Position numbers and translations under genes: made by a program | The notes under the pieces: generated by a model | What the model saw: only the letters and a program-made list of their open reading frames with translations | Database searches by the model: none | Told to the model about the DNA's origin: nothing | Sequence record: NC_011045.1 | DNA length: 38,841 nt | DNA from: Escherichia phage 13a | Strand: one strand, 5' to 3' | Shown here: piece by piece, positions 1,973-15,331 of the stretch | Numbering within the stretch: position 1 is the first letter of the stretch | Layout of the letters: each line of letters begins with the position of its first letter

Positions 1973-4624
1973 ATGAACACGATTAACATCGCTAAGAACG
2001 ACTTCTCTGACATCGAACTGGCTGCTATCCCGTTCAACACTCTGGCTGACCATTACGGTGAGCGTTTAGCTCGCGAGCAGTTGGCCCTTGAGCACGAGTC
2101 TTACGAGATGGGTGAAGCACGCTTCCGCAAGATGTTTGAGCGTCAACTTAAAGCTGGTGAGGTTGCGGATAACGCTGCCGCCAAGCCTCTCATTACTACC
2201 CTGCTCCCTAAGATGATTGCACGCATCAACGATTGGTTTGAGGAAGTGAAAGCTAAGCGCGGCAAACGCCCGACAGCCTTCCAGTTCCTGCAAGAAATCA
2301 AGCCGGAAGCTGTAGCGTACATCACCATTAAGACCACTCTGGCTTGCCTCACGAGCGTAGACAATACAACCGTTCAGGCTGTAGCAAGTGCAATCGGTCG
2401 AGCTATTGAGGACGAGGCGCGCTTTGGTCGAATCCGTGACCTTGAGGCTAAGCACTTCAAGAAAAACGTTGAGGAACAACTTAACAAGCGCGTAGGGCAC
2501 GTCTACAAGAAAGCATTCATGCAGGTTGTTGAAGCGGACATGCTATCTAAGGGTCTACTGGGCGGTGAGGCGTGGTCTTCGTGGCACAAGGAGGACTCCA
2601 TTCACGTTGGGGTTCGCTGCATTGAAATGCTAATTGAGTCTACCGGAATGGTTAGCTTACACCGCCAAAACGCTGGCGTAGTTGGTCAAGACTCTGAGAC
2701 TATCGAACTAGCACCGGAATACGCTGAGGCTATCGCAACCCGTGCAGGTGCACTGGCTGGTATCTCTCCGATGTTCCAACCTTGCGTAGTTCCTCCTAAG
2801 CCTTGGACCGGTATTACTGGTGGTGGTTATTGGGCTAACGGTCGCCGCCCACTGGCGCTGGTACGTACCCACAGCAAGAAAGCACTGATGCGCTACGAAG
2901 ACGTTTACATGCCAGAGGTTTACAAGGCTATTAACATTGCGCAAAACACCGCATGGAAAATCAATAAGAAAGTCCTAGCGGTCGCCAATGTCATCACCAA
3001 ATGGAAGCACTGCCCTGTAGAGGATATCCCAGCGATTGAACGTGAAGAACTCCCGATGAAACCGGAAGACATCGACACGAATCCTGATGCTCTCACCGCG
3101 TGGAAACGTGCCGCTGCCGCTGTGTACCGTAAAGACAAGGCTCGCAAGTCTCGCCGTATCAGCCTTGAGTTCATGCTTGAGCAAGCCAATAAGTTCGCTA
3201 ACCATAAAGCCATCTGGTTCCCTTACAACATGGACTGGCGCGGTCGTGTTTACGCTGTGTCAATGTTCAACCCGCAAGGTAACGATATGACCAAGGGTCT
3301 GCTGACGCTGGCGAAAGGTAAACCAATCGGTAAGGAAGGTTACTACTGGTTGAAAATCCACGGTGCAAACTGTGCGGGTGTCGATAAGGTTCCATTCCCT
3401 GAGCGCATCAAGTTCATCGAGGACAACCACGAGAACATCATGGCTTGCGCTAAGTCTCCACTGGAGAACACTTGGTGGGCTGAGCAAGATTCTCCATTCT
3501 GCTTCCTCGCGTTCTGCTTTGAGTACGCTGGGGTACAGCACCACGGCCTTAGCTACAACTGCTCTCTTCCGCTGGCGTTCGATGGGTCTTGCTCTGGTAT
3601 TCAGCACTTCTCCGCGATGCTCCTTGATGAGATAGGTGGTCGTGCGGTTAACCTGCTGCCTAGTGAAACCGTTCAGGACATCTACGGGATTGTCGCTAAG
3701 AAAGTCAACGTGATTCTACAAGCAGATGTAATCAACGGGACCGACAACGAAGTAGTTACCGTGACCGATGAGAACACTGGTGAAATCTCTGAGAAAGTCA
3801 AGCTGGGCACTAAGGCGCTGGCTGGTCAATGGTTGGCTTACGGTGTTACTCGCAGCGTGACTAAGCGTTCAGTCATGACGCTGGCTTACGGGTCCAAAGA
3901 GTTTGGCTTCCGTCAACAAGTGCTGGAAGATACCATTCAGCCAGCTATTGATTCCGGTAAAGGTCTGATGTTCACTCAACCGAATCAGGCTGCTGGATAC
4001 ATGGCGAAACTGATTTGGGAAGCTGTGAGCGTGACGGTGGTAGCCGCTGTGGAAGCTATGAACTGGCTCAAGTCTGCTGCTAAGCTGCTGGCTGCTGAGG
4101 TCAAAGATAAGAAGACTGGAGAGATTCTTCGCAAGCGTTGCGCTGTGCATTGGGTGACTCCTGATGGTTTCCCTGTGTGGCAGGAATACAAGAAGCCGAT
4201 TCAGACCCGCTTGAACCTGATGTTCCTCGGTCAGTTCCGTCTACAGCCAACCATTAACACCAACAAGGATAGCGAGATTGACGCGCACAAGCAGGAGTCC
4301 GGCATCGCTCCTAACTTTGTACACAGCCAAGACGGTAGCCACCTGCGTAAAACTGTAGTGTGGGCGCACGAGAAGTACGGAATCGAATCCTTTGCACTGA
4401 TTCACGACTCCTTCGGGACCATTCCTGCCGACGCTGCCAACCTGTTCAAAGCTGTGCGCGAAACTATGGTTGACACCTATGAGTCTTGTGATGTACTGGC
4501 TGACTTCTACGACCAGTTCGCTGACCAGTTGCACGAGTCTCAATTGGATAAAATGCCAGCACTTCCGGCTAAGGGAAACTTGAATCTCCAAGACATCCTT
4601 AAGTCAGACTTCGCGTTCGCGTAA
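1973..4624 (+). CDS. 1: T7-type single-subunit DNA-dependent RNA polymerase (883 aa)
   Basis: 883-aa ORF, MNTINIAKNDFSDIELAAIPFNTLADHYGERLAREQ... near-identical to T7 RNAP. Confidence 0.99.
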   Translation: MNTINIAKNDFSDIELAAIPFNTLADHYGERLAREQLALEHESYEMGEARFRKMFERQLKAGEVADNAAAKPLITTLLPKMIARINDWFEEVKAKRGKRPTAFQFLQEIKPEAVAYITIKTTLACLTSVDNTTVQAVASAIGRAIEDEARFGRIRDLEAKHFKKNVEEQLNKRVGHVYKKAFMQVVEADMLSKGLLGGEAWSSWHKEDSIHVGVRCIEMLIESTGMVSLHRQNAGVVGQDSETIELAPEYAEAIATRAGALAGISPMFQPCVVPPKPWTGITGGGYWANGRRPLALVRTHSKKALMRYEDVYMPEVYKAINIAQNTAWKINKKVLAVANVITKWKHCPVEDIPAIEREELPMKPEDIDTNPDALTAWKRAAAAVYRKDKARKSRRISLEFMLEQANKFANHKAIWFPYNMDWRGRVYAVSMFNPQGNDMTKGLLTLAKGKPIGKEGYYWLKIHGANCAGVDKVPFPERIKFIEDNHENIMACAKSPLENTWWAEQDSPFCFLAFCFEYAGVQHHGLSYNCSLPLAFDGSCSGIQHFSAMLLDEIGGRAVNLLPSETVQDIYGIVAKKVNVILQADVINGTDNEVVTVTDENTGEISEKVKLGTKALAGQWLAYGVTRSVTKRSVMTLAYGSKEFGFRQQVLEDTIQPAIDSGKGLMFTQPNQAAGYMAKLIWEAVSVTVVAAVEAMNWLKSAAKLLAAEVKDKKTGEILRKRCAVHWVTPDGFPVWQEYKKPIQTRLNLMFLGQFRLQPTINTNKDSEIDAHKQESGIAPNFVHSQDGSHLRKTVVWAHEKYGIESFALIHDSFGTIPADAANLFKAVRETMVDTYESCDVLADFYDQFADQLHESQLDKMPALPAKGNLNLQDILKSDFAFA

Positions 4625-9412: not shown

Positions 9413-11601
<2,189 letters not shown>

Positions 11602-11612
11602 AGGAGACACCC

Positions 11613-11825
11613 ATGTTCAAACTGATTAAGAAATTAGGCCAACTGCTGGTTCGGATGTACAACGTGGAAGCCAAACGTCTGAACGATGAGGCCCGTAAAG
11701 AGGCCACACAGTCACGCACTCTGGCTATTCGCGCCAACGAACTGGCTGACAGTGCATCCAATAAGGTTACAGAAGCTGCCCGTGTAGCAAACCAAGCTCA
11801 GCAACTTTCCAAATTCTTTGAGTAA
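11613..11825 (+). CDS. 4.3: gp4.3 (70 aa), unknown function
   Basis: MFKLIKKLGQLLVRMYNVEAKRLNDEARKEATQ... T7 gp4.3-like. Confidence 0.85.
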   Translation: MFKLIKKLGQLLVRMYNVEAKRLNDEARKEATQSRTLAIRANELADSASNKVTEAARVANQAQQLSKFFE

Positions 11826-11844
11826 TCAAACAGGAGAAACCATT

Positions 11845-12126
11845 ATGTCTAACGTAGCTGAAACTATCCGTCTATCCGATACCGCTGACCAGTGGAACCG
11901 TCGGGTTCACATCAACGTTCGTAACGGAAAGGCTACTATGGTCTACCGTTGGAAGGACTCTAAGTCCTCTAAGAATCACACTCAGCGTATGACGTTGACA
12001 GATGAGCAAGCACTGCGTCTGGTCAATGCGCTTACCATAGCTGCCGTGACAGCAATCCATGAAACTGGTCGCGTCAATGAAGCTATGGCTATCATAGACA
12101 AGTATTTAAGGATAAGAGTGGTATGA
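11845..12126 (+). CDS. 4.5: gp4.5 (93 aa), unknown function
   Basis: ATG with caggagaaacc SD; MSNVAETIRLSDTADQWNRRVHINVRNGKATMVYRWKD... T7 gp4.5-like; track ORF starts upstream at TTG 11818. Confidence 0.85.
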   Translation: MSNVAETIRLSDTADQWNRRVHINVRNGKATMVYRWKDSKSSKNHTQRMTLTDEQALRLVNALTIAAVTAIHETGRVNEAMAIIDKYLRIRVV

Positions 12127-12160
12127 CTCAAGGTCGCCCGAGTGGTGGCCTTCATTAATG
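12122..12160 (+). promoter_or_regulatory. RNase III site R4.7-like
   Basis: atgactcaaggtcgcccgagtggtggccttcattaatgg. Confidence 0.5.
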
Positions 12161-12183
12161 GTAGTCGACTCACTATAGGAGAT
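12161..12183 (+). promoter_or_regulatory. T7-type promoter phi4.7 (divergent upstream half)
   Basis: gtagtcgactcactataggagat: -12..+6 consensus-like, -17..-13 non-consensus. Confidence 0.55.
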
Positions 12184-12189
12184 ATTACC

Positions 12190-12597
12190 ATGCGTGACCC
12201 TAAAGTTATCCAAGCAGAAATCGCTAAGTTGGAAGCTGAACTGGAGGACGTTAAGTACCATGAAGCTAAGACTCGCTCCGCTGTTCACATCTTGAAGAAC
12301 TTAGGCTGGACTTGGACAAGACAGACTGGCTGGAAGAAACCAGAAGTTAACAAGCTGAGCCACAAGGTGTTCGATAAGGACACTGTGACCCACATCAAGG
12401 CTAGTGATTGGGTTAAGGTTGACATGGGAGTTGTTGGTGGATACGGCTACGTCCGCTCAGTGAGTGGCAAATATGCACAAGTGTCATACATCACAGGTGT
12501 TACTCCACGAGGAGCAATCGTTGCTGATAAGACCAACATGATTCACACAGGCTTCTTGACGGTTGTCTCGTATGAAGAGATTGTTAAGTCGCGATAA
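12190..12597 (+). CDS. 4.7: gp4.7 (135 aa), unknown function
   Basis: MRDPKVIQAEIAKLEAELEDVKYHEAK... T7 gp4.7-like; track ORF is an upstream extension. Confidence 0.85.
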   Translation: MRDPKVIQAEIAKLEAELEDVKYHEAKTRSAVHILKNLGWTWTRQTGWKKPEVNKLSHKVFDKDTVTHIKASDWVKVDMGVVGGYGYVRSVSGKYAQVSYITGVTPRGAIVADKTNMIHTGFLTVVSYEEIVKSR

Positions 12598-12615
12598 TCA
12601 ATAGGAGAAATCAAT

Positions 12616-14574
12616 ATGATCGTTTCTGACATCGAAGCTAACGCCCTCTTAGAGAGCGTCACTAAGTTCCACTGCGGGGTTATCTACGACTACTCCACCG
12701 CTGAGTACGTAAGCTACCGTCCGGGTGACTTCGGTGCGTATCTGGATGCGCTGGAAGCCGAGGTTGCACGAGGCGGTCTTATTGTGTTCCACAACGGTCA
12801 CAAGTATGACGTTCCTGCATTGACAAAACTGGCAAAGCTGCAATTGAACCGAGAGTTCCACCTTCCTCGTGAGAACTGTATCGACACCCTTGTGCTGTCA
12901 CGTTTGATTCATTCCAACCTGAAAGACACCGATATGGGTCTTCTGCGTTCCGGTAAGTTGCCGGGGAAACGCTTTGGGTCTCACGCTTTGGAGGCGTGGG
13001 GTTATCGCTTGGGCGAAATGAAAGGTGAATACAAGGATGACTTTAAGCGTATGCTTGAAGAGCAGGGTGAAGAATATGTTGATGGTATGGAGTGGTGGAA
13101 CTTCAACGAAGAGATGATGGACTATAACGTTCAGGACGTTGTGGTCACTAAAGCTCTCCTTGAGAAGCTACTCTCTGACAAACATTACTTCCCTCCTGAG
13201 ATTGACTTTACGGACGTAGGGTACACTACGTTCTGGTCAGAATCCCTTGAGGCCGTTGACGTTGAACATCGTGCTGCATGGCTGCTCGCTAAGCAAGAGC
13301 GCAATGGGTTCCCGTTTGACACGAAAGCAATCGAAGAGTTGTACGTAGAGTTAGCTGCTCGCCGCTCTGAGTTGCTCCGTAAATTGACCGAAACGTTTGG
13401 CTCATGGTATCAGCCTAAAGGTGGCACCGAAATGTTCTGCCATCCGCGAACAGGTAAGCCACTGCCTAAGTACCCTCGCATTAAGACACCTAAAGTGGGT
13501 GGTATCTTTAAGAAGCCTAAGAACAAGGCACAGCGAGAAGGCCGTGAGCCTTGCGAACTGGACACCCGCGAGTACGTTGCTGGCGCTCCGTATACTCCAG
13601 TGGAGCACGTGGTGTTTAACCCTTCGTCTCGTGACCACATCCAGAAGAAACTCCAAGAGGCTGGATGGGTCCCCACGAAGTACACCGATAAGGGTGCTCC
13701 TGTGGTGGACGATGAGGTACTCGAAGGAGTACGTGTAGATGACCCTGAGAAGCAAGCTGCTATCGACCTCATTAAAGAGTACTTGATGATTCAGAAGCGA
13801 ATCGGACAGTCTGCTGAGGGAGACAAGGCATGGCTTCGTTACGTTGCTGAGGACGGTAAAATTCATGGTTCTGTTAACCCTAATGGAGCAGTTACGGGTC
13901 GTGCGACCCATGCGTTCCCAAACCTTGCGCAAATTCCGGGTGTACGTTCTCCTTATGGAGAGCAGTGTCGCGCTGCTTTTGGCGCTGAGCATCATTTGGA
14001 TGGGATAACTGGTAAGCCTTGGGTTCAGGCAGGTATCGACGCAAGCGGCCTTGAGTTGCGCTGCCTGGCTCACTTCATGGCTCGATTTGATAACGGTGAG
14101 TACGCTCACGAGATTCTTAATGGTGACATCCACACTAAGAACCAGATGGCTGCTGAACTGCCTACCCGCGATAACGCTAAGACGTTCATCTACGGGTTCC
14201 TTTATGGTGCCGGTGATGAGAAGATTGGGCAGATTGTCGGTGCTGGTAAAGAGCGTGGTAAGGAACTCAAGAAGAAATTCCTTGAGAACACCCCTGCGAT
14301 TGCAGCACTCCGTGAGTCTATACAACAGACACTTGTCGAATCCTCTCAGTGGGTAGCTGGTGAGCAACAAGTCAAGTGGAAACGCCGCTGGATTAAAGGT
14401 CTGGATGGTCGTAAGGTCCATGTTCGCAGTCCTCACGCTGCTTTGAATACCCTTCTGCAATCTGCTGGTGCTCTCATCTGCAAACTGTGGATTATCAAGA
14501 CCGAAGAGATGCTCGTAGAGAAAGGCTTGAAGCATGGCTGGGATGGGGACTTTGCGTACATGGCATGGGTGCAT
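12616..14574 (+). CDS. 5: DNA polymerase gene 5, exon 1 (653 codons)
   Basis: [49 protein letters not shown]... near-identical to T7 gp5 through ...DFAYMAWVH; unspliced frame stops 8 codons later at 14596-14598. Confidence 0.95.
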
Positions 14575-15175
14575 AAACTATCTCATTGTGCACATTAAAT
14601 CTGGTGAACTCGGTGAAACCCTTCTGGGGCAATACCGAGCCAAGCCATAGGGAGGATATATGAGAGGCAAGAAGTTAATCCTTGCGACCACAGAGAGTGG
14701 TTGTATCATCCCTACGTCACACAAACTTAATGCTGATGGTTATTTCCGAAAGAAGACGAACGGTGTCCTAGAGATGTATCACAGGACAGTCTGGAAGGAA
14801 CACTACGGAGATATACCAGAAGGGTATGAAGTAGACCACAAGTGTAGGAACAGGGCGTGCTGTAACGTAGAGCACCTCCAGTTACTAGAAGGTTCTGAGC
14901 ATACAGTCAAGACAAACAGGGAACGCTACGCTGACCGTAAAGAGTCCGCGAAGGAATACTGGTTGGAGACTGGATGTACAGGAACACACTTAGGTGAGAA
15001 GTTTGGTGTAACGTTCTCTGCAGCTTGTAAGTGGATTAGAGAGTGGAAGGCGTAGAGACTATCCGAAAGGAGTAGGGCCGAGGGTGAGATTCCCTCGTTA
15101 CCCGAAGCGCCAGACAGTCAACTCAAAGGCTGATGATATAGTCCGACACTCCTAGTAATAGGAGAATACAGAAAG
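14575..15175 (+). mobile_element. Group I self-splicing intron in DNA polymerase gene (601 nt)
   Basis: Exon 1 ends in U, intron ends in G; internal guide GUGCAC (14588-14593) pairs with exon GUGCAU (14569-14574); R/S-like core gacta (15057-15061) / gatatagtcc (15135-15144); P9-like hairpin 15149-15164; joined exons restore full 704-aa DNAP. Confidence 0.85.
14660..15055 (+). CDS. Intron-encoded HNH homing endonuclease (131 aa)
   Basis: SD agggagg before ATG; HNH motif YEVDHKCRNRACCNVEHLQLLEGSEHTVKTN; paralogous to the 7.7 and post-19 HNH ORFs. Confidence 0.85.
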   Translation: MRGKKLILATTESGCIIPTSHKLNADGYFRKKTNGVLEMYHRTVWKEHYGDIPEGYEVDHKCRNRACCNVEHLQLLEGSEHTVKTNRERYADRKESAKEYWLETGCTGTHLGEKFGVTFSAACKWIREWKA

Positions 15176-15331
15176 GATGAGATTCAAGTAGGTTGCCGTA
15201 CCGAAGAGATTGCTCAGGTTGTAATTGAGACCGCACAAGAGGCAATGCGCTGGGTTGGAGACCACTGGAACTTCCGGTGTCTGCTGGATACCGAAGGTAA
15301 GATGGGTCCGAATTGGGCCGTATGTCACTGA
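15176..15331 (+). CDS. 5: DNA polymerase gene 5, exon 2 (51 codons + stop)
   Basis: DEIQVGCRTEEIAQVVIETAQEAMRWVGDHWNFRCLLDTEGKMGPNWAVCH matches T7 gp5 C-terminus. Confidence 0.9.
   Translation, partial: DEIQVGCRTEEIAQVVIETAQEAMRWVGDHWNFRCLLDTEGKMGPNWAVCH

Follow-up and report, generated by a model that had tools for sequence, protein, structure and literature searches.

The site considered here, the phi4.7 promoter, lies between genes 4.5 and 4.7 in the window, i.e. the whole stretch of 38,841 nucleotides that was analysed and to which all positions refer. By its content the window represents the genome, or nearly all of one, of a T7-group phage: its first 25 kb are about 93-94% identical to T7 across 90% of their length, and the 1 kb around phi4.7 is 96.3% identical to the best relative, Yersinia phage YpsP-G, and 94.7% identical to T7. 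A consensus search together with a core-motif search recovered 17 T7-type promoters in the window, with none expected by chance, and their order and spacing match those of the 17 promoters of T7. The features of the locus are as follows.

11586..11608, + strand: phi4.3 promoter, CAATACGACTCACTAAAGGAGAC; closest promoter on the upstream side, 575 nt away from the phi4.7 start
11845..12126, + strand: gene 4.5, toxin/antitoxin-system inhibitor family (Pfam TA_inhibitor, E = 2.6e-58)
12094..12164, + strand: hyper-divergent patch that runs from the end of gene 4.5 across R4.7 into the promoter, whose upstream half it includes
12116..12166, + strand: putative ortholog of the RNase III site R4.7; upper stem (12130-12138 with 12144-12152) intact
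12116-12124 with 12158-12166, + strand: lower stem of R4.7 in the T7 register; G.G oppositions break two of the nine pairs (12118/12164 and 12121/12161)
12161..12183, + strand: phi4.7 promoter (-17..+6), ortholog of the T7 class II promoter phi4.7; GTAGT CGACTCACTATA GGAGAT
12161..12165, + strand: upstream element GTAGT (-17..-13); consensus TAATA, T7-clade state CTATT
12166..12179, + strand: promoter core (-12..+2), CGACTCACTATAGG; same as the consensus
12190..12597, + strand: gene 4.7 (135 aa); its Shine-Dalgarno sequence GGAGA at 12178-12182 is the promoter's +1..+5

Downstream of gene 4.7, gene 5 (DNA polymerase) starts at 12616 and is interrupted at about 14565-15175, the reading frame breaking off after ...FAYMAWVH and resuming at 15176 (exon 2) with DEIQVGCRTEE. 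The insert of ~600 nt matches the full Rfam Intron_gpI model with 37.9 bits, short of the gathering score, which is 50 (a local search gave E = 4.6e-8), and carries an ORF for a 131-aa HNH_3 endonuclease at 14660-15055 (Pfam E = 6.6e-17). It has the appearance of a mobile group I intron that encodes a homing endonuclease. Group I introns with homing endonucleases have been described in polymerase genes of some T7-like phages. An Rfam scan of the whole window returned nothing at the gathering threshold.

The promoter and its counterparts in relatives

The promoter region 12161-12183 reads GTAGTCGACTCACTATAGGAGAT, with the +1 G at 12178 and the ATG of gene 4.7 at 12190; the sequence and position given for the upstream element by the initial annotation, GTAGT at 12161-12165 with +1 at 12178, are confirmed. 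All 14 nt of the core (-12..+2) agree with the consensus common to the other promoters. Within it, the segment -12..-5 (CGACTCAC), which in the T7-group definition used here is recognised by the specificity loop of the RNA polymerase, matches the consensus of the other 16 promoters at eight of eight positions, and it is followed by the melting region TATA (-4..-1) and by GG at +1/+2 (12174-12179). The upstream element agrees with TAATA at only one of its five positions (-15), and two of the others are G:C pairs. With a leave-one-out matrix built from the other 16 promoters it scores -11.3 bits, which is the 48th percentile of all 5-mers of the window; the element is no better than random sequence. 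An AT-rich element at -17..-13, one of the criteria for a T7-group promoter, is absent from the site, and the position-weight score of the site as a whole is 12.7 bits vs 23.6-39.4 bits for the other 16.

The remaining promoters had been described as all beginning with TAAT(A/T), which is true of 14 of the 16. The two exceptions are phi4c (10956; region 10951-10979), which reads CAATCCGACTCACTAAAGAGAGA and has CAATC at -17..-13, and phi4.3 (region 11581-11609), which has CAATA. A C at -17 costs little, the corresponding variant retaining about 88% of the wild-type activity among the published assay values considered here (PMC5937735). The leftmost promoter of the window, at the phiOL position (423-445), is TAATACGACTCACTATAAGGAGA and has A, not G, at the expected +1.

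A chance match can be excluded for phi4.7, because the core is that of the consensus and no chance hits are expected, and because the site also aligns with phi4.7 of T7. The alignment is base for base, both with the annotated phi4.7 of T7 (T7 13915; the Dunn and Studier 1983 sequence, record V01146) and with that of Yersinia phage R. In T7, too, the promoter stands 12 nt before the ATG, with gene 4.5 and R4.7 on its one side and gene 4.7 on the other, and its sequence is identical to that of the window from -13 to +6 and beyond. The position between genes 4.5 and 4.7 is collinear and the flanks are alignable. The window site is the positional ortholog and direct descendant of the class II promoter phi4.7 of T7.

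To place the upstream element in a broader context, we gathered relatives from IMG/VR, metagenomes and GenBank phage records, and obtained 11 distinct haplotypes of the 69-nt phi4.7 region from >30 loci. T7 and all 11 haplotypes have CTATT at -17..-13, except one with TCATT. A non-consensus element is the normal and long-known state of phi4.7 in T7 and its sampled relatives and nothing peculiar to the window, a point that the initial annotation had missed, and the phi4.7 of T7, too, is the sole promoter of its genome with -17..-13 strongly off TAATA. The difference lies in degree. CTATT of T7 has four A/T positions out of five and two matches to the consensus, whereas GTAGT of the window has two G:C pairs and one match. 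Compared with the state of the clade, the window carries -22 G>T, -18 A>G, -17 C>G (12161) and -14 T>G (12164), and within the element the window stands out solely by its additional G at -14 and its G at -17.

We did not find the exact window allele in IMG/VR (0 matches), and among 50,697 phage records the best match reached only 87.5% over 96 nt. A pattern made of the flanking motifs and spanning the variable stretch (GGCCTTCA, 10-16 nt, GACTCACTATAGGAGA) gave four matches in metagenomes, all of them CTATT; from metagenome and genome contigs it returned only CTATT alleles, or no matches. The window allele is unique within the collections searched.

Other lineages have altered phi4.7 in other ways. 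In the region orthologous to window positions 12114-12192, two loci carry -17T/-16C (L011 and L035), three carry -12A (L014, L018 and L032), one carries -11A (L031) and one -11T (L036), and in a phage represented by two loci (L005 and L023) ACG replaces the ATG start codon of gene 4.7. The changes at -11, -12 and -17/-16 are independent and are expected to be damaging. Because other lineages carry such independent damaging changes, phi4.7, and perhaps gene 4.7 as well, may be under weak selection or dispensable across the T7 group, and we infer that a loss of phi4.7 in the window phage is tolerated since the promoter is dispensable.

Polymerase, predicted promoter strength and read-through

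The cognate RNA polymerase of the window phage is encoded by gene 1 (1973-4624) and is 98.8% identical to that of T7. The 11 residues out of 883 that differ all lie outside the AT-rich recognition loop (93-101), the intercalating hairpin (232-242) and the specificity loop (739-770). As these DNA-contacting loops are identical, activity data obtained with the T7 enzyme should transfer to the window phage. According to a review (PMC11617373), residues 93-101 contact -17..-13 through the minor groove, Km responds to substitutions in the recognition region more strongly than kcat does, and class II promoters are weak and sensitive to salt to begin with.

Activity data come from Komura et al. 2018 (PMC5937735, S2 File), who used a barcoded in vitro assay in which activity is expressed as RNA reads over DNA reads and the wild type averages 169. 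Their engineered variants were confronted with the same recognition surfaces of the polymerase and include single -14G variants and a triple variant with -14G and an intact core; they differ from the promoter studied here in being synthetic, in covering -17..+2 only, in a fixed context, and in being transcribed in vitro. Among the rows of their table considered here, GTAGT is not listed; the upstream elements that are listed include TAATT (192), CAATA (149), TTATA (114), GAATA (108 and 68), CTAAT (40.8), TAACA (24.7) and TAAGA (4.1 and 3.0 in two barcoded replicates). The last of these is the -14 T>G substitution, which on its own leaves about 2% of the wild-type activity, and AAAGC, combining -14G with two other upstream changes and an intact core, falls to 0.47, i.e. 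0.28%. In the same source (S1 Table), -14 is also the position of -17..-13 most often retained among active variants (88.5%).

A multiplicative model predicts about 0.8% of consensus activity for GTAGT and about 68% for CTATT of T7. As a check, the four-substitution variant CTAAT is predicted at 25% and was observed at 24%. The next-weakest promoters of the window scored with this model (phi3.8 being left out) are phi4c and phi2.5, both at about 17%. We estimate that phi4.7 of the window may have about 0.3-1% of consensus activity; the CTATT state is predicted to cost the T7 promoter little, and the two extra G substitutions probably make the window promoter almost inactive. Published values against which phi4.7 itself could be set are scarce: its sequence was not found printed in the literature searched, and the sole paper found to name it assigns every class II promoter the same assumed strength, 0.01 relative to phi10; this value is a parameter of a model and was not measured. 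All 17 natural T7 promoters were measured in a 2026 preprint (10.64898/2026.08.01.742228).

The substitutions outside the element deserve consideration, too. With -22 G>T, the run ATTAAT arises at -24..-19, and the same preprint reports that AT-rich sequence at -22..-17 raises the strength of T7 promoters, with changes at -22 and -18 alone giving a 3.6-fold increase in one design (10.64898/2026.08.01.742228); the motif might lift the window promoter a few-fold. As upstream contacts mainly affect binding, the high polymerase concentration in infected cells could also partly rescue phi4.7. One may accordingly imagine that phi4.7 still works in vivo as a roughly normal, weak class II promoter, with the upstream element only tuning binding, the polymerase abundant and the loss at -17..-13 compensated by ATTAAT. 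Such a view is consistent with the perfect core (-12..+2) and unchanged initiation region, with Km being affected more than kcat (PMC11617373), with the stimulation just described and with the 64 nt from -13 on, which do not differ from phage phiA1122; selection might still be acting on the promoter where the core, the Shine-Dalgarno sequence and the first codons of gene 4.7 are perfectly conserved, although the ribosome-binding site and coding sequence explain part of this conservation. We nevertheless consider a working phi4.7 rather unlikely, given the two replicates of the -14G single variant, the still lower activity of the -14G triple and the retention of -14 in active variants (PMC5937735, within the rows and table considered here); a few-fold compensation would still yield only a few percent of consensus activity, and class II promoters have little strength and salt tolerance to lose (PMC11617373).

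How gene 4.7 may be expressed with such a promoter is suggested by the region upstream. No terminator-like hairpins were found on the + strand between 4600 and 12700 (from phi1.1A to gene 4.7), and the pause signal ATCTGTT does not occur on the + strand of the window except at 171. With no terminator or pause signal in between, transcripts initiated at the promoters from phi1.1A through phi4.3 should run through gene 4.7, and phi4.3 is a likely source of them. The notion that phi4.7 of the window is very weak and gene 4.7 is expressed by read-through is well supported by inference. The initial annotation had proposed that the promoter may be weak or nonfunctional and gene 4.7 dependent on read-through; this part gains indirect support from the polymerase identity, the -14G data and the lack of terminators, and only its framing was off, a non-consensus -17..-13 being the usual condition of phi4.7 in T7 and the relatives sampled.

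The overlap with R4.7 and the divergent patch

The RNase III-like hairpin that had been placed directly before the promoter corresponds to R4.7, but it overlaps the promoter rather than preceding it. The R4.7 RNA of T7 has an upper stem of 9-10 bp and a lower stem of 9 bp in which GAGUGGUAU pairs with AUACUAUUC, and the 3' arm of this lower stem is the promoter segment -20..-12. In the annotation of Yersinia phage R the overlap of R4.7 and phi4.7 comprises exactly 5 nt, namely the bases -17..-13. The T7 hairpin, as a 61-nt segment, folds with a predicted energy of -23.1 kcal/mol (z = -4.8; the z-scores for T7 range from -3 to -4.8). The window has kept the orthologous position, the 9-bp upper stem, an apical loop of similar size and the 5' arm GAGUGGUAU. 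It differs from T7 in that two of the nine lower-stem pairs are now G.G oppositions, the internal loop is one base longer, and in the predicted fold the pairing slips to another register that reaches the promoter core, with a stability not above that of shuffled sequences (z = -1.2 to -1.3 vs the T7 values above, with seven of nine lower-stem pairs in the T7 register). In this alternative lower stem, 12126-12138 would pair with promoter RNA up to 12174. In the window phage, host RNase III may still cut R4.7, for which the expected place is the 3' side of the internal loop. An Rfam scan local to phi4.7/R4.7 produced chance-level matches only (E above 3).

A dual constraint on CTATT, imposed by the promoter and by the pairing within R4.7, seems plausible and has modest support from the predicted folds. 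A stricter version, in which T7 keeps CTATT since TAATA would destroy R4.7, was tried and has weak energetic support: putting TAATA into T7 is predicted to cost about 1.1 kcal/mol of folding energy and to alter the stem geometry. In the L011 haplotype, the CU>UC change in the 3' arm keeps both pairs, with G-C and G.U swapped. Covariation across 12 highly similar haplotypes yielded no double-sided changes, and shuffles gave the same value as that observed. The idea that the window substitutions are compensatory for the hairpin is largely rejected, as reverting -17 and -14 to the T7 state improves the predicted fold; because this reversion restores a T7-like structure (-23.2 kcal/mol), the window substitutions would weaken both signals.

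The substitutions belong to a larger change. The 71-nt patch at 12094-12164 contains 14 of the 38 differences to phiA1122 found in 11700-12700, where about 1.8 would be expected (Poisson P about 1e-8), including 1-nt insertions at 12103 and 12125, and it is followed by 64 nt (12165-12228; the core, the ribosome-binding site and the start of gene 4.7) with no differences to phiA1122. The C-terminus of gene 4.5 is frameshifted and four residues longer (...DKYLRIRVV* vs ...DKIDN* in T7), and its TGA stop codon, made by the G inserted at 12125, sits inside the 5' arm of R4.7; the protein still fits its Pfam family over positions 1-86 of 89. The patch also breaks two of the nine lower-stem pairs of R4.7 and removes the remainder of the AT-rich element of phi4.7. 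A recombination tract from an unsampled lineage, locally relaxed selection and a sequencing artefact are all possible origins.

A more coordinated scenario would make R4.7 the beneficiary of the patch: the insertion, forming GACU in the 5' arm, and -14G, forming AGUC, would create a new lower stem extending into the core, so that processing is kept and the promoter is sacrificed. Such a re-registering could coexist with a decayed phi4.7 and read-through expression of gene 4.7. It agrees with the minimum-energy fold of the window hairpin (-20.3 kcal/mol; UGACU/AGUCG plus AGUGGU/ACUCACU), which uses the new register and is lower in energy than the fold in the T7 register (-18.0 kcal/mol) or the upper stem alone (-12.7 kcal/mol), and both the insertion and -14G are unique to the window phage. 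Yet the fold is no better than shuffled sequences, the reverted hairpin folds better and in the T7 manner, the inserted G has an alternative reason to be there in providing the frameshifted gene 4.5 with its stop codon, and a second sequence with the same arrangement was not found in the collections searched; we regard the scenario as unlikely. It is improbable, in our opinion, that the patch was remodelled as a unit, with a new gp4.5 C-terminus, a re-registered R4.7 whose stem would pair with the promoter core in read-through RNA, and a silenced phi4.7, and that expression of gene 4.7 was thereby switched from a dedicated promoter to processing alone. If this were true, the locus would show how, in nature, a promoter can be overwritten by the RNA-processing site with which it overlaps.

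The least credible explanation, and one to which we give very little weight, is that errors of sequencing or assembly in hairpin-rich DNA produced the patch and that the real phage has CTATT: it would account for 14 differences with two single-base insertions within 71 nt between flanks about 97% identical to relatives, for three of the four promoter-proximal changes being to G, for the insertions frameshifting the end of gene 4.5 and for an allele found nowhere else in the collections searched, but the rest of the window is 93-96% identical to relatives and has intact genes, the changes include varied transversions, and gene 4.5 is open, properly terminated and retains its fit to the Pfam family.

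A probable decayed allele of a possibly dispensable promoter

The explanation we favour as the probable one is that the window carries a decayed, near-silent phi4.7 fused to R4.7, with gene 4.7 expressed via read-through. The promoter would be fused at its upstream edge to the R4.7 processing site, so that in RNA from upstream promoters the bases corresponding to CTATT form part of the 3' arm of the lower stem (GAGUGGUAU with AUACUAUUC). Within the divergent patch, the lineage of the window phage would then have acquired four further substitutions (-22T, -18G, -17G and -14G), and the arm opposite would have gained a single nucleotide. The AT-rich recognition loop of the polymerase, itself unchanged, would read -17..-13 through the minor groove, where the G:C pair at -14 is predicted to cut binding about 50-fold, and with the whole GTAGT element the promoter would retain some 0.3-1% of the activity of the consensus, a level about 80 times below the phi4.7 of T7. 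Gene 4.7 would be expressed almost wholly from the polycistronic phi1.1A-to-phi4.3 transcripts, using its own ribosome-binding site.

The phi4.7 of the window is an ordinary finding: both the class II promoter and the RNase III site that it overlaps are known, the allele is a degenerate one specific to the lineage, and its importance beyond annotation is slight. Lists of T7-like promoters should not score it as an ordinary class II promoter, and gene-expression models of this phage should assign phi4.7 a near-zero strength. The overlap of R4.7 and phi4.7 offers a small example of the same bases serving two signals, and the allele itself illustrates, in a natural setting, how far the AT-rich upstream element can decay when read-through makes a promoter redundant.
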